From: Candidatus Omnitrophota bacterium
GTDB lineage: Bacteria; Omnitrophota; Gorgyraeia; 2-02-FULL-51-18
Direction: 5' to 3'
DNA length: 64,000 nt
Assembly (NCBI GenBank): GCA_945877765.1
Contig: CAMDWQ010000010.1
Span: forward strand, 5,679-69,678
Shown here: positions 44,901-61,904 of the stretch, piece after piece
Layout of the letters: each line of letters starts with the position of its first letter
Position numbering within the stretch: the first letter of the stretch is position 1
Position numbers and translations under genes: made by a program
Notes under the pieces: model-generated
Seen by the model: the letters and a program-made list of their open reading frames with translations, nothing else
The model's database searches: none
What the model was told of the DNA's origin: nothing

Positions 44901-47900
44901 GAAAGTCTATGACGCCAACAACCTGCTTCTATCGATCATCACTCAAGGAGGTTTGGAATACCGGTTTAATCATTTAAAAGATGAGGCGGGCAATGCCGTG
45001 GAGGAGCAATTTTTGTATTCGGCCAAAACTGAGGATGGAATGACGCTCTTTTATAAAAATGACACCGTGGACAAAATTCAGCTAAAAGACGGGACCGTGA
45101 TTAATGTTTCCGAGGCGGATCAGGATTTGTATCAAAAAGTACTGATTAAGCAAGGCCTCGTGGACCAGGTGATTCATAAGACCGGGGAGCTTGCCGTTTA
45201 TATCCGTAATAATCGCGGGGATTTGAAAGAAGTCCGTGTCAGTAAAGCTGGGCAGGAGTACCGCTACACGCCCGATGGCCGTCTCGTAAGCCGCACAGAT
45301 GTTGGCGGCGTCACTTATCATTATGGATATATTTTGGATGGGGCTGGAAATATATCCAAGACGCGCGTGGTAAAGCGTACGGCAAAATTAATTGGGGGCG
45401 ATCTGCCAACAGTGGATCCGAATACCGGTGATTTTCTGAGACTGAGTGTTTTGTCTGCCGGGATTGTGGATGGGTGGAACGCAGGTCTATTTGCCAATGA
45501 CGAAGGTGTGGGGCATTTTGATACCAATTTCTGGCGGAATTCGTCGGATCAATGGACAGGCCGTGGGTATGACGTCGCCGTTGTCGATGCCAAAGGCAAA
45601 CTTATTAAGTCCGATCTTTTCGATATCTGGCAGCTTGGGGGCTCAGAAGCCGACCGGATGGCACAGTTTATTGAGCAAGTCCCTGTGGGAAATTATGTCC
45701 TCATGGCGGTCGGTGATGAAGGCGCTCTCAACATGACCGAGCGCGCTTACAAAGCCCTTGAGTCGCTGGGAAGCGCTCAGATACGAAATCTAAAGTTCAG
45801 GGGATCGTGGGGTCTTATTGGTAGAAAAGGTGCCGCTATTGGCACAGCCATCGAAGGTCTCCGAGATAGCCAAAAAGGCTACGTCTCTTTGCAAAATTAT
45901 GATACCGAGTATAGCTATTTTGATAAAAAGGGTGTTCCGATACCCTACGACCAATTCACCGCCGTTATTTCTCAAAATTGGAACAGTAGCTACCAGAGTT
46001 ATGTGGGGGATGCGGGGGAAATTCTTAAGACATCGGTCTATAGTGATGAATATGCTATCGCCTATCACAAAAATTATAATGAGCTCTATCCTGACTCCGG
46101 TTTTATTCAACTTTGGAATGACCGTTACCTTAATCAATTTACAGTCAATGAGTATGCCCAGGGAATCATAGATAAGGTTTCAACTACGGCTACCGCCAAA
46201 TATGTCTATTACGATAGCCGCTACCCGTTTAATTATGTCCACCCGCTTTTTGCAGTCGCTCTAAAAAATATTCTGGCGGCCAATGGCTTTCGGGTGATTG
46301 ATGCCAACCAGCTTGCGGAAGTCATGAAATTAGAAGGTTCTCACGCGGTGATTGTCTCGGCGCACGATGTGATGCCGGATACCATCTATGACCCCAATTC
46401 TATTTTTTCTATTTCTTATCGAAAGCTTTCGCGTACTTTTATGGAGAATGGCGGCACGCTCGTGTGGATGGGGGATCTGCCTTTTTATTACACGGGACAC
46501 GCGGACGGCAGTAAGACCATTGTCGGTGAGATCGGAGCGAAGACAGTTTTGGGGGTGATGCCTCTGGCGCGCGGCCTTCGTGCTCCGGTGAGTAGGACCT
46601 ATGTGCAAACTTTTGATGAATGGACGTTTATTAGCGGATGGATTCACGGAAATGGCGCGACGATTCAAAACGGGACTCTCCGACTGACTTCCCAATTGCC
46701 ATCAATAGTAGGCTCGGCAAGCGACCAAAACTTCAAGCCATCAACCGGGCTTTTGCGGTATACGGTTGATTTTAAAAATAATACGCTCAACTCAGGCTTT
46801 GAAACTTATCTAGAATTTCAAAATTTTACCCCTTATCAGACTCTGGGGATTCGCCAGGAAAACGGTGTGTTTAAATTTATAGGAAAGACTCCAGTGACCG
46901 GCGGATCGTCAGTGATTACCAATTTGGGCCAAGCTGCTTATGTTGCCGGCGTGGAATACACAGTGATTTTTGAAACCGAAAACAATGTCCTTAAAGTATT
47001 TTTATATCAAAAAAATCAGCCACAGCCCGAGGTGCCTACATTTTCAATCGCTAATGTGGACCCAAGCGTTGGGGCGAGTATTGGATTTAATATTCAGCAG
47101 GGTGAGGCGTTGGTCACAAGTCTTAAAAGAGATGAGAGGGAATACGAGATTATTTCTACGCAAGCGCCAAGCATTACTCCCGATTTTAGTTTGAAGGGCG
47201 GCGAGGCGGCGTTGGATACCTCCTTGCTTTATTTCGATACCAATGTCAATTTCCGGACGGTGCGTTGGGACAAGATTCAGGAATCGATTGGCTATTCGCT
47301 TGATAGCGATACGGCCGTGGTGTCCGATTACGATAAAAATGGTGATCTTATTTCCATTGCCAAGGCGGATCGCACGGTGACCACGTATGAAAACCAAAAA
47401 GTGCAGTTGGTGACGGACATCAACGGGTATGTTCTTGTGGAGTACGCTTACGATGCACAGGGTGCTTTGACTTCCATTACCAATGTCGGCCAAAGAAGAG
47501 AGCTCGCCGATCACATTGAGGACGCCAAAGACCGGGCCAATTTTGAGAAGCTATTTCTTTTTGAAGATGTTGCCATTGAGCATAATCTTACCGCTGGAGA
47601 GCCCATTGCTAAAAGTGCTCGCATCAGGTCGTTGGCGCACAGCGCCAATGTTCTCGACGGCGGACCTGAACCAGGAAGGTCATCGATGGGCATTGTTGCC
47701 GATGAGCTCATCAGTGAGCACGCAGAAAAATATCGCCAAGAGAATCCAAAGACGCTCGAGGGGGAAGTAGGAACAGACCCTTTCTGGATACAGGTTGCCG
47801 ATGGGTACTTGGCATACTCCAGCGCGAGACTGGAAGCGCTAAAAGTTTTACGTAGTACTCAAGATATCAAAGCCAAGAGCAGGGACGCCAAGAAAGAAAA

Positions 47901-50900
47901 GTCCAAGGCTCTTGACCGGGTGCGGGACATTATCCGAGATATCGACAACAGGGAAAATGAATATCACCAGACGGTGCTTCAAGCGATTTTCAATTTCAGC
48001 GCCGCTGTGCTCCAGCAGAAAAAAAATGAAATTGAGGCCGATTATCAAAAGGCATTTGATGCGCTCGCAGTGCAGACGAGCAATTTTGAAAAAGAAATCC
48101 AGAAAGAAGAGTCCAAGCCCGTCATCTCCGATTATTACCGCTCTATCTTAGGTCGCGATGCCACCAGCGCTGAGATTGAATCCTATTATCCGCAAATTGC
48201 ACAAAATGGAAAAATCAACGCCGCGGCTTTGGGCGTCAACTTGCGAAATTCAGCTGAGTTTATCCAAAGAACCAGTCGCGTTGGTAAGATTCGCGGGGAT
48301 GTCGAAGCGGCGCTGGATGAATATGTTTCTGCAGACACAGGCAAAAAAGCTACCCTTCTTGCCTCGCTAGGTCTTACTCCCTCCGAAGTCGTTAACCTCT
48401 CCGCGCAAGACATTCAAAAAATAAAAGATTACCTTCGTTCTCAAGCCCTGCATTTTGGCGAATCCGCTATCGAATCTTTGATGGCGCTGATCAAGTCCAG
48501 GGGGATTTCTCCCAACCGCGACGAATTGGCCGCCAAGCTCATTCTCATTGATATCTTCGCGGGCATCATTCACCCCTATTTGAAAGAAGGGGAGGAAATG
48601 CTCCTGTCGGCTTATTCGCTTCAGAAAGTCGCCGCTTTTTACGGGGTGGAAGCACAGACACTAAATCTTACCTATGAAGACATGCTCGCCATTTTTTCTG
48701 CAGGAACATCCTCTGCACGAGCGATTTTACACACAGAAGGTATTCATTATTCGGTGCTTACCGCGATCACCGCTGACCAAGTGACTATCCTTGAATACAA
48801 CGGTGATTCCCGCACCATGTCCAAGGCCGATTTTCTAAAATCGTGGAAGGGGGTAGCCCTTGTTGAAAAATCTACCGCCGCCCCCGTTCTCACCGGCCCC
48901 CAGAAATCAGCCACCGCACGTGTATTAAATTCAGATGAAGCCCGACAGATCAAGGGTGGATTCTTTATGTTTATCCCTTTTATCTTCACGATGCTTGCGC
49001 ATATAGCCGCGACCATCGGCGCCATCATTGCTAGCATCGGTACGATTATTGCCCAGATTGGCATCATGGTCGGCCAGATCCTACAGGGTTTGGGCGGCCT
49101 TCTATACCAGTTCGCCCAAGGCGTCGGCGCCGTTGTCAAAGGTCTCTGGACCGGCATCAAATTTGTCGGCATGAAAATTTTCACAGGCTTCGCCAAATTT
49201 TTCGGCCCGACCCTCGCCAAAGCCGCCGCCGGTGAGGCACTAAAGGTTACTGTTGGCCAGACCATTCTCAACAATGTCATCCGAATGGGTGTTAGCTACG
49301 TCGTCTCCAAAGGCCTCGACGCGCTGGGCGTGGACCCTATTGTCACGAGCATCATCTCAACGTTTGTGACAGGCGGGATGCACGGAGGATTTACCTCGCA
49401 AGGCTTCAATTTCGGCTTCAGCCTAGCCGACGGCCTCAAAGCAGGTCTCCAGTTAGGCGCCAAAACATTCCTCCAAGCCGCCGGGCTTGACCCCCAGCTT
49501 TCGGGAATCTTATCGATGACGACAGGCCCCTTGGTGAATGGGGTGTGGACGGGGAATGTGGGGGGAGAGTTATTTAAGATTGCGCCGGAGCTTACAACCA
49601 GCTTAGCTCAATACGGGATAGACAAACTCGGAAAATCGCTGGGGTTGGATCCGAGGCTGACAGGATTGATTTCAGCGCCAATCTCATTGGCGATAGGGAA
49701 AAATTTCCAGACTGGGAATATCTTCGGCCAAGATGTCATTAAGGCCGTCCAAGATGGCATTTTCCGAGGAGCTATCGCGTACGGCGTCGACTTTGCCGCC
49801 AATAGAATTACCGACAACAAGCTTCTTCAAGCCTTAAGCTCACGGCTTATCTCTGGAGCCATTGAAGGAACATTCCTTCAAAAAGATCTCTTTGCGGGAG
49901 TCGTTGGCGCCCTAAAGCAATCCGTTGTCGGCATTTTTGGAGCTAACCAAAGCGATGTTCTCGGCAATATTGTAAACTTCTCAACATTGGTGGCACAAAA
50001 TGGTTTTAAGAACGCCGCAGAGCTCTATTTGACCAATATCTTCAACAAACAGAGTATTGAAGCCATCTATCGCTTGGGCGGTATCGCAAGCGCTCTAGCG
50101 TCTCCTAAAACTCAAGTCACTCTCCCCGACGGAAGAGTTGCCTATCAGACAGTCACCTCCTCGGGAGAAGCGATAATCTTTGACGCCATGAACAACCTGC
50201 TCGGCTTTCAGAGAAACGGTCTTTATCAGATAGGAGGGTTTGGTATCACCAGCGCCGGATCCTTTGGGCTTATCAGTGGAAAATCTTTTGGAATGATCGC
50301 CGGCGGCTCATCATTTGAAGCCTCCATCCAAAATGGAAAAGTGACACAAATCACAACCTACACCGACCAAGTCCGCCTGGATATAGATTTGGGTGAAGGA
50401 ACGGATGGCATTCGTTTTGATTCCGACGGAAACCTGACCGATGGAAGGATGACGTTGGATGAGAGGATAGATTTTACGGTAGTCAATGGCACTGTTTACG
50501 GGATTGAGCTAGATAAAGAAAATCCAAATACAACCTCCGTTAACGATGCGTATGCGTTTGCTGAGCGTATTATTAGTGCTGTGCTGGATGGCTCGGGGAG
50601 TTCGAGTTCTGGGTCTAGCGTGATTGACCAATTGCAAAAAGAGCTCATCACTTACTATCTATTTGGTAATGGATTTGAGAATGAAAGAAGGAAAGAAGAT
50701 ACCCTTGATCCGCTTTTGAAGTTTTATACAGATAATCTGGAATTCGATGATCCTAAAGTGATTACTGAGGGTCAAAAAATTGTGGTGGATCTCTATGAAT
50801 TTACCAAAGTCGCCGGAAACGGTTTGGATTGGCTAGGGGATTTCAATCCCGTATTTTTAGTTTTGTTGTTAGGCGTGTTAGGCCTGACCTACGTCGCCGC

Positions 50901-51681
50901 CGATAGAATCATCCAAAAGGTGATCAACAACGAATCTCTGGATTCATCCGCCTCGGACGGAGAAAAATCTTTTTATCAAAAAGTACAAGATTACCTAAGA
51001 AAATTTAGCGAACAGACAGGTCTTGGCAATAATCTCGTACTTGAAACCATCAGACAAATGGAAGCATTGCAAGCCAAAAAAGGAAAGCTAAAAGATGCTA
51101 TCGCATTCGTTCACTCAGGGGCCACAGCCCCCGTTTTAAGTGCCATCGAGCAAATGCAATATGATGTAGAAACAGTGCTTATCTATGAAGGGCCCCACCC
51201 AAACTACACCGCACAATTTACAAATCCAAGCTTAAAGCGTATTATTCATGTCATGGGGTCGAGCCACGGCCTATTAGACAGCTCGCTCGAGGGAGACGCG
51301 CCTGTGCCGTTTTTGGGATGGGCAAACTTTAAAAACCCAGCCAACGTTGATTTTAAAAACATCAATATTGAAATTGAGGGTGCCTGGCACAGCGATTATG
51401 CCTATAACGCAGAGGAATGGGATAAAAAAATCGCTGCTGTTACAGGAAGCACCCCAACCGCGGTTGAGGCTGATCGAAATCGCATCAGAGCACTAAAGGA
51501 AAGAAATAGAAAAGTGAATTTATTCATGAGGGATTTGTATCAGGCGGCCTACAAAGATCAGACAAATCAAGGGCTCTTGGACGATTTTTTTGAAGATCTA
51601 AAAACAAAAGGCGCAGCCAATCTAGAGAGTGGCATCTGGAAAATTGATCCCACAAAATTAAGAGATGTGACCCCCCAATGA
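38962..51681 (+). CDS. Giant secreted multidomain protein (4239 aa) with YD/RHS-type repeats, a triplicated 83-aa module, a FAM3/ILEI-like domain, a DUF4214-like motif, an inactive C39-like peptidase fold, a Gly/Ala-rich hydrophobic region and a C-terminal GxSxG domain
   Basis: Uninterrupted ORF with ribosome-binding site and signal peptide MRRSPYLKIISLALIISFSFSNLLYAADP; many Y.YD..G repeats; the domain evidence is given in the findings. Confidence 0.85.
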   Translation: MRRSPYLKIISLALIISFSFSNLLYAADPRDLLNAAKAGFALEDQRRTGGEAPLNNQSQGYAQGLVDQKNNLADLEQLNFSLTTQNGDILKYAGDKLAQIQRPDGTILQNIVLAADGKIQNADLKLFDGSIQVFQNGQVIGYETPDGTQVFYANSQIQKTISKSGVETLYAYTKDANGKVLETILENSQAKTIYDAQGKLKEVYQKGLSQRMVYQAGILQSITLQDGSQALFQAQTINSQVKVTFKSYVDANGNTYVNDMQYLLKDGSSLKNIIWGSDGKVVNALLESIDGSTYTFTNKVITAIRLPSNWVLSSITWDTQDKLKDGILTDLANNQWTYQAGALVSIKLLDGSILSSITWDAQNKIKTANLIDAQKKEYTFANNQLSQPLNAIAFQLDTQYGLVAGNSTYQFNWAGKNEKWFKANNNTWYFILPDGKVYLWNSVAGKNLTTSTLVVTLNSSYWEDPAFLCDASDRAIVLQLDTQYSLVPGSSTYQFNWAGQNEKWFKANNNTWYYILPTGQLYLWDAKGGKNLTTSTLAATLNSHFWEDPTKVHLAFERAALESTALNLDRQYALIPSSSNYFLNWAGQQEKWFKSSSGTAQYFILSDGSLYLWNQPAGKNLATSTKLATLSADYWANPTLLCRAYDRTVAVVVTSAYTAKIIGITKPQISVSKRTLSASKLNIATLSAAFSFNSILYNTDGSFAQILEKDNTTLNFKNNLLVDAKDAQGKIIHFDFTESAFGNLLGSSLTQSGATSTYDEQGNLSSVKVGDTTIHYSAENKIESVEKADGTRVENIIFDAQGNIHDAKMTAPDGTQRTYQAKKMIREKKADGTETDFVDGKPSVTRMADGRVYVYSPAAIIGNSAAFRSILTQYVSDDGSAVYVNDGIPFKIQTKSGMVLTNLVFALDGTLTDAIGSFTGPDENQMTLTYQGKEVRQIISADGSRLFYENNRLKSMTKPNGEQIIYEYTLDGDGEILKIILKDASGTRIYNPAFGKSSELVDDDLVNQDGGEVDLGRALPAMDLLSYFKAIENTTTHLPESHVGINDPLTISYTYDVALYLLAGASSGGAILDYIISNPEKMINTTYVPSGGMYSDLSTLGGQAGFDRNSVVAGPNAWIGLAALKQYQKTQDVKYLNFAKARAAFIKTLSDPSGGIVMGPAGQWGIPPFSDLKSTENNLSALYLYQALYTATNDAQYLAAADSLWAYVKTLYDPTLHAFSRGEHKGGGEWLKDSANVFATDVLAWMPFERVVNDSFFGADVLARLKEVENMIRAAEKYTGLFTPVGDIQGFSYSPESKDRSVISIEWSAQMANLYLKIARSYKQLGNDVKYRFYGSRYQKLTASLETFVKTDASGVSRAPYAVYQNGKGAYGEFTGHGWATPSPKNQNGDVFSMASIYYQFSRQKTDPLTLANGSILSANYISQADIDKYSGTSLRDQKYFDAVTSLERYENEKFTAVYSKGTLRSIQYENILINNPVIDARGFLVSAEIHTPDGQVYTLKDRKLATLLRANGTLLGYEGDLIVDVTAPNGKKVHYTYTKNAQGYVTGIAVEYNTGNGWIGKPIAEYLFDPANTEEKPIHQTNYHLAGDDYRQGSVGSSTIGSGESEWFGSAQGLDPLDPEARLVFDSSTLEGTGDRNFIDIQAYRYDLEWPDNMLSVQNDSFVFLRAKETNSSTDVHLSPYWMTASGLLLWVPLQNGFDIPLTDQYQNHLISIQPDALVVGRKTFNLRLVFATPMPAAAPWKISIAEMDYFQLKHIEPEDYLQYLNLSQEQMLDVSRKPLKNDAMDLLEGSQIVSNFNHQKEAEKFLIAMDLDANYNYLSGTRVDKSVERYAGGKVASLLKNGSEETYEYDVNGQIQKVINKDAATQAVKTVTYYQYGRIRRVEDASAKALYTYSYQTDSANNEITLVKDEATGELKHYQGSRLTQMDNADGTRTLYFYENTDERISRSQIMSGQSILAKFSYSYEGANTLVTDADGATKVYDANNLLLSIITQGGLEYRFNHLKDEAGNAVEEQFLYSAKTEDGMTLFYKNDTVDKIQLKDGTVINVSEADQDLYQKVLIKQGLVDQVIHKTGELAVYIRNNRGDLKEVRVSKAGQEYRYTPDGRLVSRTDVGGVTYHYGYILDGAGNISKTRVVKRTAKLIGGDLPTVDPNTGDFLRLSVLSAGIVDGWNAGLFANDEGVGHFDTNFWRNSSDQWTGRGYDVAVVDAKGKLIKSDLFDIWQLGGSEADRMAQFIEQVPVGNYVLMAVGDEGALNMTERAYKALESLGSAQIRNLKFRGSWGLIGRKGAAIGTAIEGLRDSQKGYVSLQNYDTEYSYFDKKGVPIPYDQFTAVISQNWNSSYQSYVGDAGEILKTSVYSDEYAIAYHKNYNELYPDSGFIQLWNDRYLNQFTVNEYAQGIIDKVSTTATAKYVYYDSRYPFNYVHPLFAVALKNILAANGFRVIDANQLAEVMKLEGSHAVIVSAHDVMPDTIYDPNSIFSISYRKLSRTFMENGGTLVWMGDLPFYYTGHADGSKTIVGEIGAKTVLGVMPLARGLRAPVSRTYVQTFDEWTFISGWIHGNGATIQNGTLRLTSQLPSIVGSASDQNFKPSTGLLRYTVDFKNNTLNSGFETYLEFQNFTPYQTLGIRQENGVFKFIGKTPVTGGSSVITNLGQAAYVAGVEYTVIFETENNVLKVFLYQKNQPQPEVPTFSIANVDPSVGASIGFNIQQGEALVTSLKRDEREYEIISTQAPSITPDFSLKGGEAALDTSLLYFDTNVNFRTVRWDKIQESIGYSLDSDTAVVSDYDKNGDLISIAKADRTVTTYENQKVQLVTDINGYVLVEYAYDAQGALTSITNVGQRRELADHIEDAKDRANFEKLFLFEDVAIEHNLTAGEPIAKSARIRSLAHSANVLDGGPEPGRSSMGIVADELISEHAEKYRQENPKTLEGEVGTDPFWIQVADGYLAYSSARLEALKVLRSTQDIKAKSRDAKKEKSKALDRVRDIIRDIDNRENEYHQTVLQAIFNFSAAVLQQKKNEIEADYQKAFDALAVQTSNFEKEIQKEESKPVISDYYRSILGRDATSAEIESYYPQIAQNGKINAAALGVNLRNSAEFIQRTSRVGKIRGDVEAALDEYVSADTGKKATLLASLGLTPSEVVNLSAQDIQKIKDYLRSQALHFGESAIESLMALIKSRGISPNRDELAAKLILIDIFAGIIHPYLKEGEEMLLSAYSLQKVAAFYGVEAQTLNLTYEDMLAIFSAGTSSARAILHTEGIHYSVLTAITADQVTILEYNGDSRTMSKADFLKSWKGVALVEKSTAAPVLTGPQKSATARVLNSDEARQIKGGFFMFIPFIFTMLAHIAATIGAIIASIGTIIAQIGIMVGQILQGLGGLLYQFAQGVGAVVKGLWTGIKFVGMKIFTGFAKFFGPTLAKAAAGEALKVTVGQTILNNVIRMGVSYVVSKGLDALGVDPIVTSIISTFVTGGMHGGFTSQGFNFGFSLADGLKAGLQLGAKTFLQAAGLDPQLSGILSMTTGPLVNGVWTGNVGGELFKIAPELTTSLAQYGIDKLGKSLGLDPRLTGLISAPISLAIGKNFQTGNIFGQDVIKAVQDGIFRGAIAYGVDFAANRITDNKLLQALSSRLISGAIEGTFLQKDLFAGVVGALKQSVVGIFGANQSDVLGNIVNFSTLVAQNGFKNAAELYLTNIFNKQSIEAIYRLGGIASALASPKTQVTLPDGRVAYQTVTSSGEAIIFDAMNNLLGFQRNGLYQIGGFGITSAGSFGLISGKSFGMIAGGSSFEASIQNGKVTQITTYTDQVRLDIDLGEGTDGIRFDSDGNLTDGRMTLDERIDFTVVNGTVYGIELDKENPNTTSVNDAYAFAERIISAVLDGSGSSSSGSSVIDQLQKELITYYLFGNGFENERRKEDTLDPLLKFYTDNLEFDDPKVITEGQKIVVDLYEFTKVAGNGLDWLGDFNPVFLVLLLGVLGLTYVAADRIIQKVINNESLDSSASDGEKSFYQKVQDYLRKFSEQTGLGNNLVLETIRQMEALQAKKGKLKDAIAFVHSGATAPVLSAIEQMQYDVETVLIYEGPHPNYTAQFTNPSLKRIIHVMGSSHGLLDSSLEGDAPVPFLGWANFKNPANVDFKNINIEIEGAWHSDYAYNAEEWDKKIAAVTGSTPTAVEADRNRIRALKERNRKVNLFMRDLYQAAYKDQTNQGLLDDFFEDLKTKGAANLESGIWKIDPTKLRDVTPQ

Positions 51682-52355: not shown

Positions 52356-54437
52356 TTGACTGAAGAAATAGTTCCCATCGTATCACCCTCCGAAAGAAAA
52401 ACCCGCGCCACTAGTTACGAGTTGTCAATTAAGACTTTCTTAGAGGATCTCCAATTTAAAGATGTGGATGGGGCAAGAGATTCATTTTTAATAGGCGAAA
52501 ATCAGGTTGATGTTTGCGGAGGTCATGAGGATACACTCCTGATCATAGAATGCACGATGAAGCAAGCATTGGGGAAAAAATTGCTAATTGCCAAGATTGC
52601 GGAGTTAAGAGGAAAAAGGGATGTATTCCAAAAAGGCTTTAGAAAAAGCGAGAAGTATGGGCATTACAAAAATTTTAAATATATTCTTTCGGTGCGTAAT
52701 ATTCCGGTGCGTCGAGAAGATATTGATTATGCGAACAAAGACGAATGCAGAATTTATATATGGGATGATAACTGTATTGATTATTACAAGGATCTATATT
52801 CCAAAATCGGCGAATATGCCAAGTATGAACTTTTGGGTGAAATAGGGATTAGGCCGGCAAGTGGAAACACTGTTAGTATCCCAGCGGCTTGCACAAATAT
52901 TGCTGGATCTGATGTCTATTTATTTTTTGCAGACCCACGAACGTTACTCGAAGTTTCATGTGTCGCAAGACGTGAAAAGGGGCAAGAACGATACTATCAA
53001 AGGATCATAAACAAAAAAAAGCTTAAACAAATTGCTTCATATGTTGAGACTGGGAATATCTTACCCAATAACATCATAATAGGCATTAGTGAGCAATCCC
53101 GAAAATATTTAAAATTTACACCATGGCAAACCAAGCTTGATTACAAGCAACAATTATTGCAGTATGGTGTTAAATATGGAATTTTAGAATTTCCGAAAGA
53201 TTATCGTAGTTGCTGGATAATAGATGGACAGCATCGTCTCTACTCTTTTATAAACACAAAAAAACCTATTTATTTGCCTGTTGTTGCTTTTCATGATCTT
53301 AGCATGGAGAGACAATGCAAATTATTTTTAGACATCAATAAAAACCAGAAGCCTGTTCCTCCAGATTTAGTTTGGGATCTTAACGGTGACATGATTCCTT
53401 CCGAACCTGACGGCATTATTTCAAGCGTTGTCAAAAGTCTTAACGAAATGGAGCCGTTAGCTAGAAGAATCCACATTCCATCAAAGGGAATGCAAACATC
53501 TCACGGCTATTTAAAAATGTCGGGAATTTGTTTGAGTTTAAAAAGAACAAAATTAGGGACCCATGTTACGTATAGCAAGACTGAAAATCCATTTTGGAAT
53601 AAAAACCCCGATGAGACGGTTCGCCAACTCTCCAAAGCACTTTCAATATACTTTATTGTCATAAAAGATATTCTCAGAAAGGATTGGGAAAGGGGGGATA
53701 AGGGCTTGGCTCTTTCTAACGGGTCCAACTCGATATTAATTAGAATTTTTGAGAGAATTGTTTCCAACTGTGTGCTTAAAAAGAACGCTGTCAAAGCATC
53801 GGATTATGAAAAATATTTAAAGCCTCTTGGTAAATATTTAAACGAAAAAACGGATGAAGATTATAAAAAGATTCGTTTGATGGCCTCCAGCGAGGGCGGA
53901 AAAGATAACCTTTTGAGGGATTTTGTTTTATACATTCGAAAAGAAACAAATGACTGGCAATTTGGTGGAAATATAGATGCATCGGGATCCTCTGAAATAA
54001 AGTCTCTTGAAAAAAGATTTAAGGATTTGTTTGAATTAAAATTTAAAGAAGATAGGGCAGAGGATGTTCTTTCAAAGGATCTTTATGGCAAGGCATCAAA
54101 ATATCTTTCAACGCACGGCCTATCAAAACGTGATATTTATCGACAATTAACTTTTGGTGAGTGTGTTCGTGTTTTAAGGGAGAAAAAGGACATATTTTAT
54201 CCTAGTTTTGTTGGGTCTAATTGTGAATTTCATGCCGAAATTGATTTTGAGTCAGCATTAGGGCATATCACTAGGCACAGGAACAGCCAACTTTCACACG
54301 ATATTGGTGCGGCTGCTCGGGATACGGACGATCCGTTATTTAAAATTTACATTGATAAAATAAATAAATGTATAAATGGTATTTTGGGGGAAAGCGAAAA
54401 CGATGAGGAGGCAGAGGACGATAGTGATGAATTATAA
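52356..54437 (+). CDS. DGQHR-domain protein (DndB-like / ParB-nuclease superfamily) with an extra N-terminal nuclease-like region and long C-terminal region; TTG start
   Basis: Literal motif CWIIDGQHRLYSF at nt 53212-53250; ribosome-binding site GAGGA 6 nt upstream; acidic C-terminal tail. Confidence 0.7.
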   Translation: MTEEIVPIVSPSERKTRATSYELSIKTFLEDLQFKDVDGARDSFLIGENQVDVCGGHEDTLLIIECTMKQALGKKLLIAKIAELRGKRDVFQKGFRKSEKYGHYKNFKYILSVRNIPVRREDIDYANKDECRIYIWDDNCIDYYKDLYSKIGEYAKYELLGEIGIRPASGNTVSIPAACTNIAGSDVYLFFADPRTLLEVSCVARREKGQERYYQRIINKKKLKQIASYVETGNILPNNIIIGISEQSRKYLKFTPWQTKLDYKQQLLQYGVKYGILEFPKDYRSCWIIDGQHRLYSFINTKKPIYLPVVAFHDLSMERQCKLFLDINKNQKPVPPDLVWDLNGDMIPSEPDGIISSVVKSLNEMEPLARRIHIPSKGMQTSHGYLKMSGICLSLKRTKLGTHVTYSKTENPFWNKNPDETVRQLSKALSIYFIVIKDILRKDWERGDKGLALSNGSNSILIRIFERIVSNCVLKKNAVKASDYEKYLKPLGKYLNEKTDEDYKKIRLMASSEGGKDNLLRDFVLYIRKETNDWQFGGNIDASGSSEIKSLEKRFKDLFELKFKEDRAEDVLSKDLYGKASKYLSTHGLSKRDIYRQLTFGECVRVLREKKDIFYPSFVGSNCEFHAEIDFESALGHITRHRNSQLSHDIGAAARDTDDPLFKIYIDKINKCINGILGESENDEEAEDDSDEL

Positions 54438-54453
54438 AAGCTGAGAAGAATTT

Positions 54454-55221
54454 TTGCGCTTAAATTTTGATGTATCGGTTGTCAGGGGTTTGAGAAGCGC
54501 CTCCCAAAGAGCGCGAGTTTTAACTGAGGACTGGGTTGATAAGCAAGTTTATTGCCCTAATTGCGGGCTTGTCGATATAGATAAATATCCAAATAATAAT
54601 CCCGCCGCCGATTTTCACTGCTCGAATTGCCATGAAGACTATGAGCTCAAAAGCAAAAACTCTAAAATTGGCACAAGAGTCGTCGACGGAGCCTACAAGA
54701 CATTGATTCAGAAGTTGCGGGGCAGTACCAATCCCAATCTATTTTTGTTAAATTACGATCCGCGAAGTCTTGAAGTTCAAAATTTTTTTGTGATTCCAAA
54801 GCACTTTTTTATTCCTGAAATTATTGAAAAGAGGAAACCGCTTGTACTCACCGCTCGCCGTGCCGGGTGGGTTGGTTGTAACATTCTTCTGCATGGCATC
54901 CCGCAAACGGGGAAAATTTATTTTGTAAAAAATCGTATTGTTGAGTCGAAATCAAAGGTACTTTCCTGTTGGAAAAAAACACTTTTTTTGAGAGAAGAAA
55001 AAGAGCTTGTCGCCAAAGGCTGGCTTTTGGATGTGATGCGCTGTGTCGAGCAGCTTAGCCAAAGTTTTTCACTTGATGAAGTTTATTCTTTCGCGGGAGA
55101 GCTCGGGATCAAACACCCTGGGAATCGACACATCAAGGATAAAATCCGTCAACAGTTGCAGGTTCTGCGTGAGAGAGGCTACCTCGAGTTTATCGGGCGA
55201 GGCCGTTACCGGCGCCCTTGA
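54454..55221 (+). CDS. DpnI-family methyl-directed (Gm6ATC) type IIM restriction endonuclease
   Basis: 255 aa; strong similarity as recalled to S. pneumoniae DpnI (QRARVLTEDWV..YCPNCG...ADFHCSNCHEDYELKSK...ARRAGWVGCNI...HIKDKIRQQLQVLRE...GRGRYR). Confidence 0.7.
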   Translation: MRLNFDVSVVRGLRSASQRARVLTEDWVDKQVYCPNCGLVDIDKYPNNNPAADFHCSNCHEDYELKSKNSKIGTRVVDGAYKTLIQKLRGSTNPNLFLLNYDPRSLEVQNFFVIPKHFFIPEIIEKRKPLVLTARRAGWVGCNILLHGIPQTGKIYFVKNRIVESKSKVLSCWKKTLFLREEKELVAKGWLLDVMRCVEQLSQSFSLDEVYSFAGELGIKHPGNRHIKDKIRQQLQVLRERGYLEFIGRGRYRRP

Positions 55222-55440
55222 TCACTTGACTTGACACTTTTCCTTGATTGATCAATGATCGGATCATGCGAGTCCAAGAGTCTATAAACTTTAAAAAAAA
55301 TCTTGTTAGATTGCTAGATTATGTTTGGCGTGACGAATCCAAGCATTACCAAGAAAATCGAAAGCGTGACCATATATTTCTAACGATAAGAAGCTTGGCT
55401 CGTGAGGTAGGGTATGCCAAAAAGTGCAAGGGGTGAAAGC

Positions 55441-55701
55441 ATGACGAGGTCTTTTATTTTTATCACCGAAGAAGGGTTTACCTATCAACCCAAGTCAGTT
55501 TCACAGATGCCAGATGTTGATAATTTTCAAGTTCTTGGGTTTTCTCAGGGCCAGACAGAGGGAAAAGCGTTCAAGAATTTTTTATGTGAGAATGAATGGC
55601 TTGGTATAATGACATTTAGAAAAGTGAGCTGTTACGAATTAAAAGATAGGACCTGCAAAGAATTTTTAATTCCTAATTCTAGGGTCAAAAAATCCCCGTA
55701 G
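55441..55701 (+). CDS. Hypothetical small protein (86 aa from ATG 55441)
   Basis: ORF only; its C-terminus runs into a 65-bp repeat; no recognisable family. Confidence 0.3.
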   Translation: MTRSFIFITEEGFTYQPKSVSQMPDVDNFQVLGFSQGQTEGKAFKNFLCENEWLGIMTFRKVSCYELKDRTCKEFLIPNSRVKKSP

Positions 55702-55750
55702 AAAGAAACTTGATTATTTTTAGCCCAATTTAGCGATACCCACCGAGCTT
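55686..55750 (+). repeat. 65-bp direct repeat, copy 1 (GTCAAAAAATCCCCGTAGAAAGAAACTTGATTATTTTTAGCCCAATTTAGCGATACCC)
   Basis: About 93% identical to 58703-58768 in the same orientation. Confidence 0.75.
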
Positions 55751-58008: not shown

Positions 58009-58275
58009 ATGGAACATCTTGAAATTACAATGCTCTCATCCAAAGGTCAGATAGTGTTGCCCCAGACGATTCGGCTCAAGCTTCATCTGACCCAAGGTGA
58101 GAAGTTTATCGTTCTGGGTGAGAAAGACACCGTTATCCTAAAAAAGATCGAGCGCCCCGCTCTTGAAAGAGCCAAGAAATTGGTTAAAGAATCAAGGGCC
58201 TGGGCCAAGAAGGCGGGACTCACCCTGTCTGATGTCAGCGATGCTATCCGTAAGGTAAGAGCTGAATCAAAGTGA
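58009..58275 (+). CDS. AbrB/MazE/SpoVT-type antitoxin
   Basis: 88 aa; SSKGQIVLPQTIR swapped-hairpin motif; overlaps the PIN gene. Confidence 0.7.
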   Translation: MEHLEITMLSSKGQIVLPQTIRLKLHLTQGEKFIVLGEKDTVILKKIERPALERAKKLVKESRAWAKKAGLTLSDVSDAIRKVRAESK

Positions 58276-58676
58276 GGGTCGTTTTAGACACCAACGTCCT
58301 TATCTCGGGAATCTATTTTGGTGGAATTCCAGGCCGCATTGTTGATGCCTGGCTTGACGCCAAATTTACCGCGTGCATAACGCCGGACATCTATGACGAG
58401 TATCTTAAAGTCATTGATAGATTCAACAAAAAAGGCGCGAGTCCGATCATTGAACGTGATTGGCCAACCCTTCTTCCGGAGATATGTTATATGATCTCCG
58501 ACCAAAAATTAGCCCATCCTATCTCACGGGATACCAGTGATGATAAATTCATCGCCTGCGCCATGGGCGCAAAAGCTGGCCACCTTGTCACCGGCGACTT
58601 GGATTTAAAAACAATCCCCCCGCAGCCAGGCTTTAAGATCGTCTCCGTGGAAGAGTTTTGGAATATTTTAAAGTAG
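58272..58676 (+). CDS. PIN-domain toxin (VapC-like)
   Basis: 134 aa; MRVVLDTNVLIS...; acidic residues at the conserved positions. Confidence 0.75.
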   Translation: MRVVLDTNVLISGIYFGGIPGRIVDAWLDAKFTACITPDIYDEYLKVIDRFNKKGASPIIERDWPTLLPEICYMISDQKLAHPISRDTSDDKFIACAMGAKAGHLVTGDLDLKTIPPQPGFKIVSVEEFWNILK

Positions 58677-58702: not shown

Positions 58703-58768
58703 TTAACGGCGTCAAAAAATCCTCGTAGACAGAAATCTGATTATTTTTAGCCCAATTTAGCGATACCC
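58703..58768 (+). repeat. 65-bp direct repeat, copy 2
   Basis: Matches 55686-55750; followed directly by the transposase remnant. Confidence 0.75.
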
Positions 58769-59244: not shown

Positions 59245-60108
59245 GTGCTGATGGATATACTAAAAGGGATGATTATGGATATGCAGAAGTTTTACGATAT
59301 GGCAATTCTTTATTCTGTGAAGTACGGTTTGCAGGCGATCGTTGCGCTGATCATCCTTTTTATTGGATGGAAGTTGGCGGCCTGGGTTTCACGGCTCAGC
59401 TACGAAGCGCTTCAAAAAAAGCATCTGGACATCACGCTTAGTCATTTCATTGCGGGTATCGTGAAAATGGTCGTCATGGCCTTCGCGGTGCTCATGGCGC
59501 TGGATAAACTGGGCATCACGATCAATCCGCTTATCGCGACGATCAGTGCCGCGGTATTTGGCGCGAGCTTTGCCATTCAAGCCCCGCTATCGAATTATGC
59601 AGCCGGGTTATCGATCATCCTCACGAGGCCCTTCGTCGTCGGCAATACGATCACCGTCAAGAGCTACAGCGGTGTCGTGGAAGAAGTAAAACTCCCGTGC
59701 ACGGTTCTTCTTAACGGCGACGGCGAGCGCATCACGATCCCCAATAAGGATATTGTTGGCGAGGTCATCACTAATTCGTTCCTCAATCACGCGGCGGATA
59801 CGGTGATCGGGATCAGCTATTCGGACGACCCGGAAAAGGCGATCGCTGTGATTTTGGAGGCACTCAAAAAAATCCCCGCCGTATCGCAAGAGCTGGGACC
59901 GTTTGTGGGTGTTCAGTCGTTTGGCGAGTCTTCCATCAACATCAGTGCTCGTTATTGGGTGCCGACCACACAAGCGCGTTTGGCACAGCATGATGTTAAT
60001 CTTGCCATCTATAAGGCAATTCAAGCGGCGCGTATCACCATTCCGTTTCCGCGCAGGGATTTGCATGTGTTTCCCGCAGATAAGGCCTCGCTCTTGACCG
60101 GAAAATAA
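59245..60108 (+). CDS. Small-conductance mechanosensitive channel (MscS family)
   Basis: 287 aa; 3 transmembrane segments, then a conserved beta domain. Confidence 0.75.
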   Translation: MLMDILKGMIMDMQKFYDMAILYSVKYGLQAIVALIILFIGWKLAAWVSRLSYEALQKKHLDITLSHFIAGIVKMVVMAFAVLMALDKLGITINPLIATISAAVFGASFAIQAPLSNYAAGLSIILTRPFVVGNTITVKSYSGVVEEVKLPCTVLLNGDGERITIPNKDIVGEVITNSFLNHAADTVIGISYSDDPEKAIAVILEALKKIPAVSQELGPFVGVQSFGESSINISARYWVPTTQARLAQHDVNLAIYKAIQAARITIPFPRRDLHVFPADKASLLTGK

Positions 60109-60142: not shown

Positions 60143-60938
60143 TGGGGACACGTACCTAATTCACCCTAACTTACTTTGGTTTTGGCCCAGGTTTAATTTT
60201 TCTAAGCATTCTTCCAGTTTTATCTTCCAGCATCTCAATAAACTCGTCAGAGCCCAGAGGTTTGCCGCTGGAGAGATGCCCCTGGATTAGGTTTATTTCT
60301 TTGTTGCTTGCCGAGGCTAGGTAATCTGACCAATCTTGGATTTCTTCGGTAAGAAAAAAGTCACTAAGCAGTTCATCTTTAAGCTTTAGGACTCTTGTTC
60401 TGGCGCTAGACCAGGGGTAATCTTGAGCCTTGATTACGATAGCTGCTTTGACAGGGTTTGTCTCAACATAGCGAACCGCAGCATAAAGATGCTGTTGATC
60501 TAGAACATAGCTTAAGAATCGTCCCTGCCACAAATACCCACGCCATCTCTCCCGAAAATTAATCATTCGTGTATATCGTCTATGGGTTTGACCGAAAGCT
60601 GATCGGAGCGACTCTTCTTTCTTGGGAACGGCTACAAAATGGACGTGATTATCCATAAGGCAGTAGGACCAGATAACAACTCCAAAGCGTTCACATTGGG
60701 CTTTTAAGATCTCCAGGTAAGCTTTTTTATCGCTGTCAGCAAAGAAGACCCGTTGTCTTCGATTCCCGCGCTGGATGATGTGATGCGGTAGTCCCGGAAC
60801 TATGAGTCGTGCGATTCTAGGCATGTAAGTGTCCCTCCACCATACAGGACGACACAGAACCTCACTTTCGTCATAAATAAATCGGAAATTTTAGAACTAC
60901 TTACAACAAGTAACGTGGCGGTGTGGGAATTAGGTACG
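60143..60938 (-). mobile_element. RAYT / IS200-like HUH element, bounded by 22-bp inverted repeats TCTGGGGACACGTACCTAATTC
   Basis: Left inverted repeat at 60143-60164, right inverted repeat (reverse complement) at 60917-60938; CAGATGC repeats follow at 60939-60960. Confidence 0.75.
60171..60824 (-). CDS. REP-associated tyrosine transposase (Y1 HUH, COG1943/IS200-like)
   Basis: 217 aa; HUH motif LMDNHVHFV; catalytic Tyr region RYVETNPVKA; C-terminal WQGRF...DYPWSS. Confidence 0.8.
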   Translation of the reverse strand: MPRIARLIVPGLPHHIIQRGNRRQRVFFADSDKKAYLEILKAQCERFGVVIWSYCLMDNHVHFVAVPKKEESLRSAFGQTHRRYTRMINFRERWRGYLWQGRFLSYVLDQQHLYAAVRYVETNPVKAAIVIKAQDYPWSSARTRVLKLKDELLSDFFLTEEIQDWSDYLASASNKEINLIQGHLSSGKPLGSDEFIEMLEDKTGRMLRKIKPGPKPK

Positions 60939-61404: not shown

Positions 61405-61662
61405 ATGAAAACCGTGCGTTGGCATTTTCTTAAGAATGAAAGGCTTAAAAAACTTAGGGGCGTGGGCTTCGAAGATATTCTTGGCTGGAATCATATTCAG
61501 ACGCTTCAACACCCCCTTAAATCCTATGAACAAATAATGTTGTATGAGCGGAATGGGCGCATTTGGGCAGTGCCCATCGTAGAAACGGAACGGGAGATTG
61601 TCCTAAAAACATTATATCCGAGTCGAAAGTTTACTAAAATGTACAAACAGGGGCGGTTGTGA
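61405..61662 (+). CDS. BrnT-like (DUF497) toxin
   Basis: 85 aa; VRWHFLKNERLKKLRGVGFEDI ... YPSRKFTKMY. Confidence 0.55.
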   Translation: MKTVRWHFLKNERLKKLRGVGFEDILGWNHIQTLQHPLKSYEQIMLYERNGRIWAVPIVETEREIVLKTLYPSRKFTKMYKQGRL

Positions 61663-61904
61663 GACGAATTAAATTATCAAAATATGAAAAATGGATTGAG
61701 GGGCATGCGGATGAGTATGTGCCTGTATCCAAAGAAGATCACCAGAGTATCGCGGATATCATTAAATCTTATCGAAAGAATGCTGTTCTTAATATCCGAG
61801 TTAACAGCACGGATCTTCAATGTCTCAAAGATAAAGCTAAAAAACTGGGAGTTAAATACCAGACATTTATTTCCCAGATTCTTCACCAGGTGGCTCAGAG
61901 CTAG
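61659..61904 (+). CDS. BrnA-like antitoxin
   Basis: 81 aa; NIRVNSTDLQCLKDKAKKLGVKYQTFISQILHQ; overlaps the toxin stop. Confidence 0.55.
   Translation: MRRIKLSKYEKWIEGHADEYVPVSKEDHQSIADIIKSYRKNAVLNIRVNSTDLQCLKDKAKKLGVKYQTFISQILHQVAQS

Follow-up and report, generated by a model that had tools for sequence, protein, structure and literature searches.

The locus lies within a 64-kb stretch of DNA (the window) and comprises two adjoining open reading frames, ORF1 and ORF2, followed by a small AF_1447-like ORF (Table 1). The initial annotation had placed a protein of 693 residues beside a DpnI-family gene, and both reading frames were confirmed in an operon-like arrangement, on the same strand with an intergenic gap of 16 nt. 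Nothing resembling a terminator or a promoter lies in this spacer, and read-through from ORF1 probably accounts for the transcription of DpnI. The GC fraction is 0.368 in ORF1 and 0.439 in DpnI, compared with approximately 0.46 for the window.

Table 1. Genes, domains, and junction at the locus, in window coordinates.
Feature	Position	Strand	Details
ORF1	52356..54437	+	693 aa; TTG start; GAGGA ~7 nt upstream; PD-(D/E)xK fold, ParB/DGQHR, HEPN
ORF1 N-terminal restriction-endonuclease PD-(D/E)xK fold	52383..52850	+	aa ~10-165
ORF1 ParB-like DGQHR domain	52896..53705	+	aa 181-450
ORF1 C-terminal HEPN-fold domain	53988..54431	+	aa ~545-692
Cassette/recombination junction and 16-nt spacer	54435..54453	.	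98-99% identity with sister contigs L131-L134 from 54435 on
ORF2, DpnI-family m6A-dependent type IIM endonuclease	54454..55221	+	255 aa; TTG start; intact
ORF2 catalytic domain	54454-54996	+	aa 1-181
ORF2 winged-helix DpnI_C	55015-55212	+	aa 188-253
AF_1447-like ORF	55414..55701	+	95 aa; accompanies DpnI across loci

ORF1 is built from three domains. The first has the alpha-beta-beta-beta-alpha-beta core of the PD-(D/E)xK superfamily, which bears out the nuclease-like N-terminal extension proposed in the initial annotation, and a helical region (aa ~418-540) follows the central DGQHR domain. The C-terminal ~150 residues, overlooked earlier, adopt the four-helix HEPN fold and carry its Rx4-6H motif, here as a conserved Rx5H (R642-x5-H648, RNSQLSH, nt 54279-54299). 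The AF2 model of the protein has a pLDDT of 84.1. In a Foldseek search of the full-length model against the PDB, matches were weak because the query has several domains; none reached E < 0.001, and they lend qualitative support only. Neither ORF1 nor its family profile gave a useful match among PDB sequences. In Pfam, ORF1 did not match DUF262 (PF03235) or DUF1524 at E <= 0.1, nor did it match AIPR (PF10592).

The literal DGQHR pentapeptide reported earlier is present in the translation (aa 290-294, nt 53223-53237), and the surrounding domain scores 125.8 bits against TIGR03187 over aa 181-450 in an HMM search (cutoff 58.85) and 38.5 bits against Pfam DndB (PF14072; cutoff 29.1). Its motifs are RR205-206, QR215-216, DGQHR290-294, and F324xxxN328. 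The QR pair, the pentapeptide, and FxxxN are signature motifs of the DGQHR family (PMC4619093), and all three are invariant in 112/112 ORF1 homologs, across which the active-site-type residues of ORF1 are also conserved. ORF1 is nevertheless, as previously proposed, neither DndB nor DpdB, falling far below the equivalog cutoffs of both (TIGR03233, 15.7 bits against a cutoff of 328; NF041060, 67.9 against 300); the PADLOC DndB model gave 16.9 bits, and DGQHR_dnd_1 65.2 against a cutoff of 450. It is indeed about twice the size of these proteins, but this is no oddity: a three-domain architecture of ~680 aa is the norm in a family of ~330 clusters.

Candidate catalytic residues in the PD-(D/E)xK fold are E22, D52, and E65. 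The second motif string quoted in the initial annotation, ECTMK, is also found in the translation (aa 65-69, nt 52548-52562), where the usual position of the ExK lysine is taken by T67, with K69 at +4. Most relatives have the canonical form E...D...E-C-K; the lysine itself is present in 64 of the 112 homologs and replaced in the other 48, as in ORF1. Given this replacement, the N-terminal domain may serve to bind DNA and not to cleave it.

ORF2 matches PF06044 (DpnI) with 247.7 bits and PF17726 (DpnI_C) with 101.4 bits, both above cutoff, and the PADLOC model mREase_II with 351 bits. It aligns end to end with Streptococcus pneumoniae DpnI (4ESJ; E = 1.5e-75), with an intact Cys4 zinc site (CPNC...CSNC) and an intact catalytic D...ELK motif (ADF...YELKSK). 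By homology, it would be a DpnI-type enzyme that needs no partner to cleave Gm6ATC DNA. The observed/expected ratio of GATC in the window is 0.82, which is uninformative because other palindromes have similar values.

The absence of dnd, dpd, and ssp partners, noted earlier, holds within the window: among its 40 other ORFs, PADLOC models for Dnd, Dpd, Ssp, and methyltransferases gave no match at E <= 1e-5, and there is no dndCDE/dndA or dpdA/dpdC context. A six-frame translation of all 64 kb, searched with three HMMs, likewise contained no methyltransferase of the three corresponding classes. No tRNA or convincing flanking repeats surround ORF1 (52.2-54.4 kb); only one repeat pair is clear, with a length of 58 nt, and it encloses another segment, of 3 kb. 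A phage origin of ORF1 was considered and rejected, as phage and IMG/VR collections hold only relatives of 25-28% identity.

Evidence on how the two genes relate comes from four sister metagenome contigs (L131-L134), in which the gene order is TPR, AIPR, DpnI, AF_1447-like. Their DpnI is identical to ORF2 at 254 of 255 residues, and their AF_1447-like ORF is identical at 95 of 95. The gene preceding DpnI is in these contigs an unrelated 425-aa AIPR abortive-infection gene (AIPR, 93.7 bits), separated from DpnI by 157 nt instead of 16, and the TPR proteins encoded further upstream share only 37% identity with that of the window. DNA identity of 98-99% between the window and these contigs starts exactly at 54435, which is the ORF1 stop codon. 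Remote homology between ORF1 and AIPR was rejected: hhalign gave a probability of 0.85% when the family profile was compared with the AIPR of the sister strains, and blastp found only an 18-aa "IIDG.H" patch (E = 3). The slot upstream of DpnI is a variable cassette site, with ORF1 here and AIPR in the sister strains. The adjacency of ORF1 and DpnI reflects a cassette junction specific to this strain and does not represent a conserved two-gene system. This comparison offers a clean natural case of toxin-cassette displacement beside a restriction gene and is directly relevant to the old hypothesis of a coupling between immunity and abortive infection.

The wider family gives a similar picture. 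Among 115 non-redundant family loci, DpnI-derived genes lie near five: one apparently full (L062, 69% identical to the DpnI of the window), three single-domain fragments, and one weak match (L014). The fragments are a 131-aa DpnI_C protein ~30 nt upstream of the family gene on the same strand (L106), a 77-aa DpnI_C protein, with an EVE protein also nearby (L087), and a DpnI catalytic domain alone (L055). Gene order and orientation vary among these five loci, which are dispersed over the tree. Conversely, all four DpnI homologs examined lack a DGQHR or AIPR neighbor; a small downstream ORF is their only companion. In L127, a 42%-identical counterpart of the AF_1447-like ORF lies 4 nt after DpnI. 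The initial annotation had proposed a two-component system of DGQHR protein and DpnI; its reading of ORF1 as distinct from DndB and DpdB, with a nuclease fold and an operon-like position, stands, but the specific system is not supported, as the two genes essentially fail to co-occur in other genomes and AIPR takes the place of ORF1 in the sister strains. The claimed system looks like an ordinary juxtaposition within a defense island.

On balance, we lean toward a reading in which ORF1 would act autonomously, as an NTP-gated nuclease effector, and DpnI would form a second, independent layer. The ORF1 family appears to consist of defense-type proteins in which a ParB-like NTPase core stands between a restriction-nuclease fold and a HEPN RNase fold of the Abi2/Swt1 type. 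ParB/DGQHR cores fused to PD-(D/E)xK, HNH, and HEPN nucleases and linked to restriction-modification (R-M) have been described (PMC3632139), as have ParB-HEPN fusions (PMC3710099), and in GmrSD and SspE the nucleases are activated by DUF262, which acts as an NTPase sensor (PMC12065111). By analogy with GmrSD/BrxU/SspE and with AIPR/AbiU1, the DGQHR domain would bind and hydrolyze NTP, serving as a DNA-dependent switch that permits the adjoining nuclease domains to attack foreign nucleic acid or, in a suicidal response, that of the host. Since the slot is variable and occupied by AIPR in the sister strains, the protection conferred by ORF1 and DpnI would be layered and independent. The locus is best read as a small low-GC defense islet in an ordinary chromosomal region, in which two separable defense genes have been joined by chance. 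To our knowledge, the ParB-NTPase-driven restriction enzymes described to date (GmrSD, BrxU, and SspE) all use an HNH nuclease; if active, the ORF1 family would add a new effector architecture, combining PD-(D/E)xK DNase and HEPN RNase folds.

A functional cooperation between ORF1 and DpnI is, in our estimate, rather unlikely. It could take two possible forms. In one, ORF1 would back up DpnI as an abortive-infection effector, set off by a block of DpnI or by the breaks that DpnI makes; in the other, the m6A-reading winged helix of DpnI would provide target recognition in trans for a nuclease chassis that itself lacks a reader. The shared strand and the 16-nt gap without a terminator favor such cooperation, and this spacing would also be expected of a functional operon; DpnI-derived genes adjoin other members (the five loci above), and AIPR, the alternate occupant of the slot, is likewise an R-M-linked toxin, which fits the concept of "toxin displacement" proposed for R-M-associated AIPR genes (PMC3506569). 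Against it, the breakpoint of the sister-strain swap coincides with the ORF1 stop codon, the DpnI homologs examined stand without such a partner, and the DpnI-linked loci follow no common order, orientation, or branch. DpnI is moreover extremely abundant (at least 7,935 clusters), so chance adjacency in defense islands is expected, its single-domain pieces may be mere remnants of decay, and, from its homology to 4ESJ, it is a complete enzyme alone. A looser functional coupling with DpnI is possible, because DpnI-derived modules are the commonest non-methyltransferase neighbor of the family (5 loci), because reader modules recur next to its members or fused to them, and because AIPR and ORF1 are both toxin-type genes associated with R-M.

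A broader form of this idea, which we consider quite unlikely, would see the PD-(D/E)xK-DGQHR-HEPN protein as a modular restriction chassis with interchangeable reader modules in cis or in trans. Modified-base readers (EVE, a TgMcrB-N-like YTH fold, HARE-HTH) are fused to some members, and DpnI_C, EVE, and McrB-N-like modules recur fused to or beside them. The fused readers would act in cis and stand-alone DpnI_C or EVE genes in trans; at this locus, DpnI or its winged helix would be the trans reader of a two-tier m6A-dependent system, in which DpnI would cut first and the ParB-NTPase-gated DNase/RNase would then be recruited or triggered at Gm6ATC DNA. If so, ORF1 and DpnI would form a previously undescribed pair.

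Also improbable is an R-M system with methyltransferase protection in which ORF1 would be the restriction subunit and the cognate methyltransferase would reside elsewhere in the genome or have been lost, leaving ORF1 as an orphan or attenuated nuclease. DNA methyltransferases are the usual neighbors in the family: they occur within 3 kb of 34 of the 115 family loci, and of 21 of the 39 that have at least 1.5 kb on both flanks. This strong association is, in some clades, more in keeping with a classical R-M nuclease than with an autonomous effector. Several clades show strict two-gene methyltransferase operons, often with overlapping genes: an N6_N4 methyltransferase lies upstream in L019, L023, L024, L099, L111, and L043-45, and a D12 methyltransferase downstream in L036, L039, and L125. 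In L056, the nearest relative whose gene context could be used (50% identity), a C5 methyltransferase lies 112 nt upstream, and distant plasmid relatives adjoin a radical-SAM/short-DGQHR modification-like cluster. Other neighbors in the family include NgoPII/HaeIII/BglII restriction enzymes, Vsr, GmrSD_N, and DUF499. However, the window itself contains no methyltransferase of the three classes, most members of its own clade stand alone even where the flanks extend to ~10 kb, and the conserved nuclease is accompanied by methyltransferases of three unrelated classes. An intact ExK lysine was rejected as a predictor of a neighboring methyltransferase (Fisher p = 0.10, with the opposite trend), and the reader-domain fusions indicate a modification-dependent logic in some members. 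Since its members occur in methyltransferase operons as well as in fusions with modified-base readers, the family would be useful for studying how a single nuclease module changes between methylation-protected and methylation-dependent action.

Finally, ORF1 shares its DGQHR domain with DndB, an ATP-modulated repressor, and with DpdB, an ATPase required to insert the 7-deazaguanine precursor preQ0 into DNA (PMC10853773, PMC12839542), but a role as such a regulator or ATPase of a DNA-modification pathway, and not as a nuclease, is very improbable given the equivalog scores, the window devoid of dnd, dpd, and ssp genes, and two additional nuclease-fold domains with conserved catalytic-type residues.

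Among the known systems nearest to ORF1 are the type IV enzymes GmrSD/BrxU/SspE (DUF262-DUF1524). Like ORF1, they join a nuclease to a ParB-superfamily NTPase that carries DGQ(Q/H)R, a QR pair, and FxxxN and precedes a helical middle domain, and they are single-polypeptide, methyltransferase-independent genes of defense islands. Modified-base readers occur in these enzymes as in some members of the ORF1 family. In contrast, the nuclease of ORF1 is an N-terminal PD-(D/E)xK domain instead of a C-terminal DUF1524 HNH domain, ORF1 has an extra C-terminal HEPN domain and matches neither DUF262 nor DUF1524 in Pfam, and many of its relatives, unlike GmrSD, reside in methyltransferase operons. DndB and DpdB have the same DGQHR domain (TIGR03187, PF14072), and DndB has been described as combining a ParB-like domain with HEPN (PMC3632139); ORF1 differs from both in its doubled size, its added PD-(D/E)xK domain, and the lack of dnd/dpd partners in the window.

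AIPR/AbiU1 and ParB-HEPN fusions such as Saro_3948, known from computational surveys, are, like ORF1, displaceable Abi-type toxin genes beside R-M genes, and AIPR occupies exactly the slot of ORF1 in the sister strain, although ORF1 has neither an AIPR Pfam match nor profile similarity to the sister-strain AIPR. A distant ORF1 relative on plasmid pNL1 of N. aromaticivorans is probably the catalogued ParB-HEPN fusion. We know of none of these toxin-type proteins with a demonstrated mechanism, nor of a described DpnI cassette that includes an upstream DGQHR gene. ORF2, in turn, is a full-length homolog of the enzyme of the S. pneumoniae DpnI (dpnC) cassette, with its catalytic and zinc sites conserved, and the pneumococcal locus also pairs DpnI with a small downstream gene, as seen for ORF2.

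The DGQHR gene (ORF1) and the DpnI-family gene (ORF2) are separated by a 16-nt spacer, with GAGGA ~7 nt 5' of the ORF1 start and GAGAAG ~5 nt 5' of the ORF2 start. Because this spacer displays no terminator-like or promoter-like site, co-transcription of the two genes is plausible. GC content is 0.355-0.396 at 52-55 kb, compared with ~0.46 window-wide, and the remaining window is housekeeping chromosome, encoding ribosomal proteins, SecY, RpoA, PGK, and TIM. The initial annotation of a DGQHR protein beside DpnI, lacking dnd, dpd, or ssp partners, holds for both ORFs: PADLOC returned no Dnd, Dpd, Ssp, or methyltransferase match among the 40 other ORFs of the window, and N6_N4, C5, and D12 methyltransferase HMMs found none in its six-frame translation. 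A giant ORF lies directly upstream of the islet. Downstream, a direct repeat flanks a 3-kb segment that may be an inserted element and carries an ORF without a Pfam match and a toxin-antitoxin pair; the right end of the window contains many mobile and toxin-antitoxin genes.

Coordinates of features in the window and at the collected homologous loci (L-numbers)
Feature	Coordinates	Strand	Remarks
ORF1	52356-54437	+	TTG start, 693 aa
ORF1 Cys66 codon	52551-52553
ORF2	54454-55221	+	TTG start, 255 aa
Giant ORF	38962-51681	+	4,239 aa
Small ORF	55414-55701		95 aa, AF_1447-like
Direct repeat	55684-55741, 58711-58768		58 nt, 93% identity
ORF in 3-kb segment	56417-57916		499 aa
MazE/AbrB-PIN pair	58009-58676
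MscS channel	59245-60108	+
IS200-like Y1 transposase	60171-60824	-
CopG-like antitoxin ORF	61659-61904	+
Small ORF	L127:5776-5994		72 aa, AF_1447-like
Small ORF	L129:5776-5967		Second family
Small ORF	L135:4777-4968		Second family
Small ORF	L136:4776-4934
Small ORF	L062:281-733		Second family
DpnI with R-M fragments	L127:4711-6472
DpnI with R-M fragments	L129:4711-6383
Distant ORF1 relative and cluster	L139 (pNL1):5683-12181
Distant ORF1 relative and cluster	L140:4695-11230

Judged by its sequence, ORF2 is an intact DpnI: it scores 247.7 bits against PF06044, 101.4 bits against PF17726, and 351 bits against PADLOC mREase_II, and can be aligned along its full length with S. pneumoniae DpnI (4ESJ; E = 1.5e-75), its Cys4 zinc site and D...ELK motif both being present. 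The DpnI family comprises at least 7,935 clusters, mostly at 66-71% identity, many of them from Patescibacteria. Every DpnI locus inspected carries a small ORF (52-150 aa) 4 to ~190 nt downstream, which may represent a real conserved companion of DpnI. These ORFs belong to two unrelated families, and the window and L127 members of the AF_1447-like family are 42% identical. In L127-L130, close DpnI homologs are flanked on one side by a 97-aa N6_N4 methyltransferase fragment and on the other by a DpnII- or MutH-like fragment, which looks like insertion into a decayed DpnII-type R-M locus.

Four sister metagenome contigs (L131-L134) provide a natural experiment on the gene pair. Their DpnI matches that of the window at 254/255 residues, but the gene upstream encodes a 425-aa AIPR protein (PF10592, 93.7 bits) in place of ORF1, with no similarity to the ORF1 family in a profile comparison. 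Identity of 98-99% between these contigs and the window begins at the ORF1 stop codon (54435), spans DpnI, and extends to at least 57098; the AF_1447-like ORF is the same in both (95/95 residues). Upstream of 54435, the giant gene's 3' end alone contains a similar stretch (77%), and the TPR proteins are just 37% identical. Hence, ORF1 and DpnI have separate histories, and ORF1 sits in a replaceable cassette slot.

Family neighborhoods were surveyed in 46 genome and 80 metagenome loci, yielding 115 non-redundant ORF1-family loci, in which DpnI was sought by tblastn with the window protein and by Pfam. DpnI-derived genes lie near only five, which are dispersed over the family tree: L062 (upstream C-terminus of a DpnI, sharing 69% identity with that of the window and separated from the DGQHR gene by a small ORF), L106 (131-aa DpnI_C protein ~30 nt upstream, same strand), L087 (an EVE protein and, on the opposite strand, a 77-aa DpnI_C), L055 (catalytic domain alone, opposite strand), and L014 (weak match). 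Conversely, none of four distinct DpnI homologs has a DGQHR or AIPR neighbor, while the small downstream ORF recurs beside them. The proposed novel DGQHR-DpnI system is therefore not borne out by these counts and the AIPR swap. Functional cooperation of ORF1 with DpnI is unlikely; in its favor are the operon-like arrangement of the two genes and the DpnI_C and EVE modules that recur in the ORF1 family.

The dominant neighbors of the family are methyltransferases of three classes (PF01555, PF00145, and PF02086), which make up 22 of the 165 directly flanking genes and occur within 3 kb at 34/115 loci, or at 21 of the 39 loci whose two flanks each extend 1.5 kb or more. Distant clades form strict two-gene methyltransferase operons, often with overlapping genes; the window's own clade (at least 40% identity) is mostly solitary, even where flanks reach ~10 kb, and methyltransferase presence does not track an intact ExK lysine. 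That ORF1 is an orphan R-M nuclease whose methyltransferase is encoded elsewhere seems still less probable than cooperation with DpnI.

ORF1 matches TIGR03187 (DGQHR) over aa 181-450 at 125.8 bits (cutoff 58.85) and falls far below the equivalog cutoffs for DpdB (67.9/300), DndB (15.7/328), and DGQHR_dnd_1 (65.2/450). It is thus a DGQHR-domain protein and neither DndB nor DpdB, both ruled out by these scores, and a role as a DndB/DpdB-like regulator is very improbable. The top Foldseek matches by probability are all PD-(D/E)xK nucleases, although no E-value is significant; the degenerate N-terminal PD-(D/E)xK module guessed initially was right, and a C-terminal HEPN domain had been overlooked. 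The latter is of Abi2/Swt1 type (AbiA 7.4, AbiF 7.0, Swt1 C-terminal domain 7.0, AF0298 6.6, 4nqf 6.0), and the ParB-like core resembles PadC (6.9), pNOB8 ParB-N (6.4), and KorB (6.0). Across 112 full-length homologs, RR205-206, QR215-216, DGQHR290-294, F324, and N328 are invariant, E22, D52, and E65 are conserved in 109, 110, and 107, and the HEPN Rx4-6H (R642-x5-H648 in ORF1) in 105. The canonical ExK lysine at position 67 is present in 64, being T in ORF1 (ECTMK) and its closest relatives. C66, which separates the candidate catalytic Glu from the Lys position (E-C-K/T), occurs in all 112 homologs; a cysteine inside E-x-K is unusual among PD-(D/E)xK motifs.

More than 100 full-length relatives (~680 aa, 36-54% identity) occur in highly diverse uncultured bacteria and archaea, and an exhaustive search among 1.84 billion representatives found 330 clusters at 50% identity (E <= 1e-30). 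About 13% of homologs carry additional N-terminal modules, including HARE-HTH (50.9 bits) and EVE (23.7 bits, cutoff 23). Methyltransferase operons and modified-base-reader fusions within one family imply opposite polarities. On alphaproteobacterial plasmids, a distant relative of 769-786 aa adjoins short DGQHR, radical SAM, and ATP-binding genes, a candidate DNA-modification module of which the long protein is a possible effector.

The most economical reading of the locus is a two-gene defence islet of independent modules: DpnI, which would be self-sufficient, and ORF1, a predicted autonomous multi-nuclease effector. Its nuclease activity would be gated by the putative ParB-NTPase and directed at modified DNA, unmodified DNA, or RNA. 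The remaining interest lies in a candidate ParB-NTPase nuclease variant and in a clean example of a cassette swap. The DGQHR motif is akin to the DGQQR motif of the GmrS DUF262 domain (PMC4619093), and DUF262 is an NTPase sensor that switches on nucleases in GmrSD and SspE (PMC12065111). Computational surveys have catalogued fusions of ParB/DGQHR cores with PD-(D/E)xK, HNH, and HEPN nucleases beside R-M systems (PMC3632139, PMC3710099). Makarova and Koonin put forward the association of AIPR with R-M and toxin displacement (PMC3506569), and the swap of the ORF1 slot in the sister contigs agrees with this idea.
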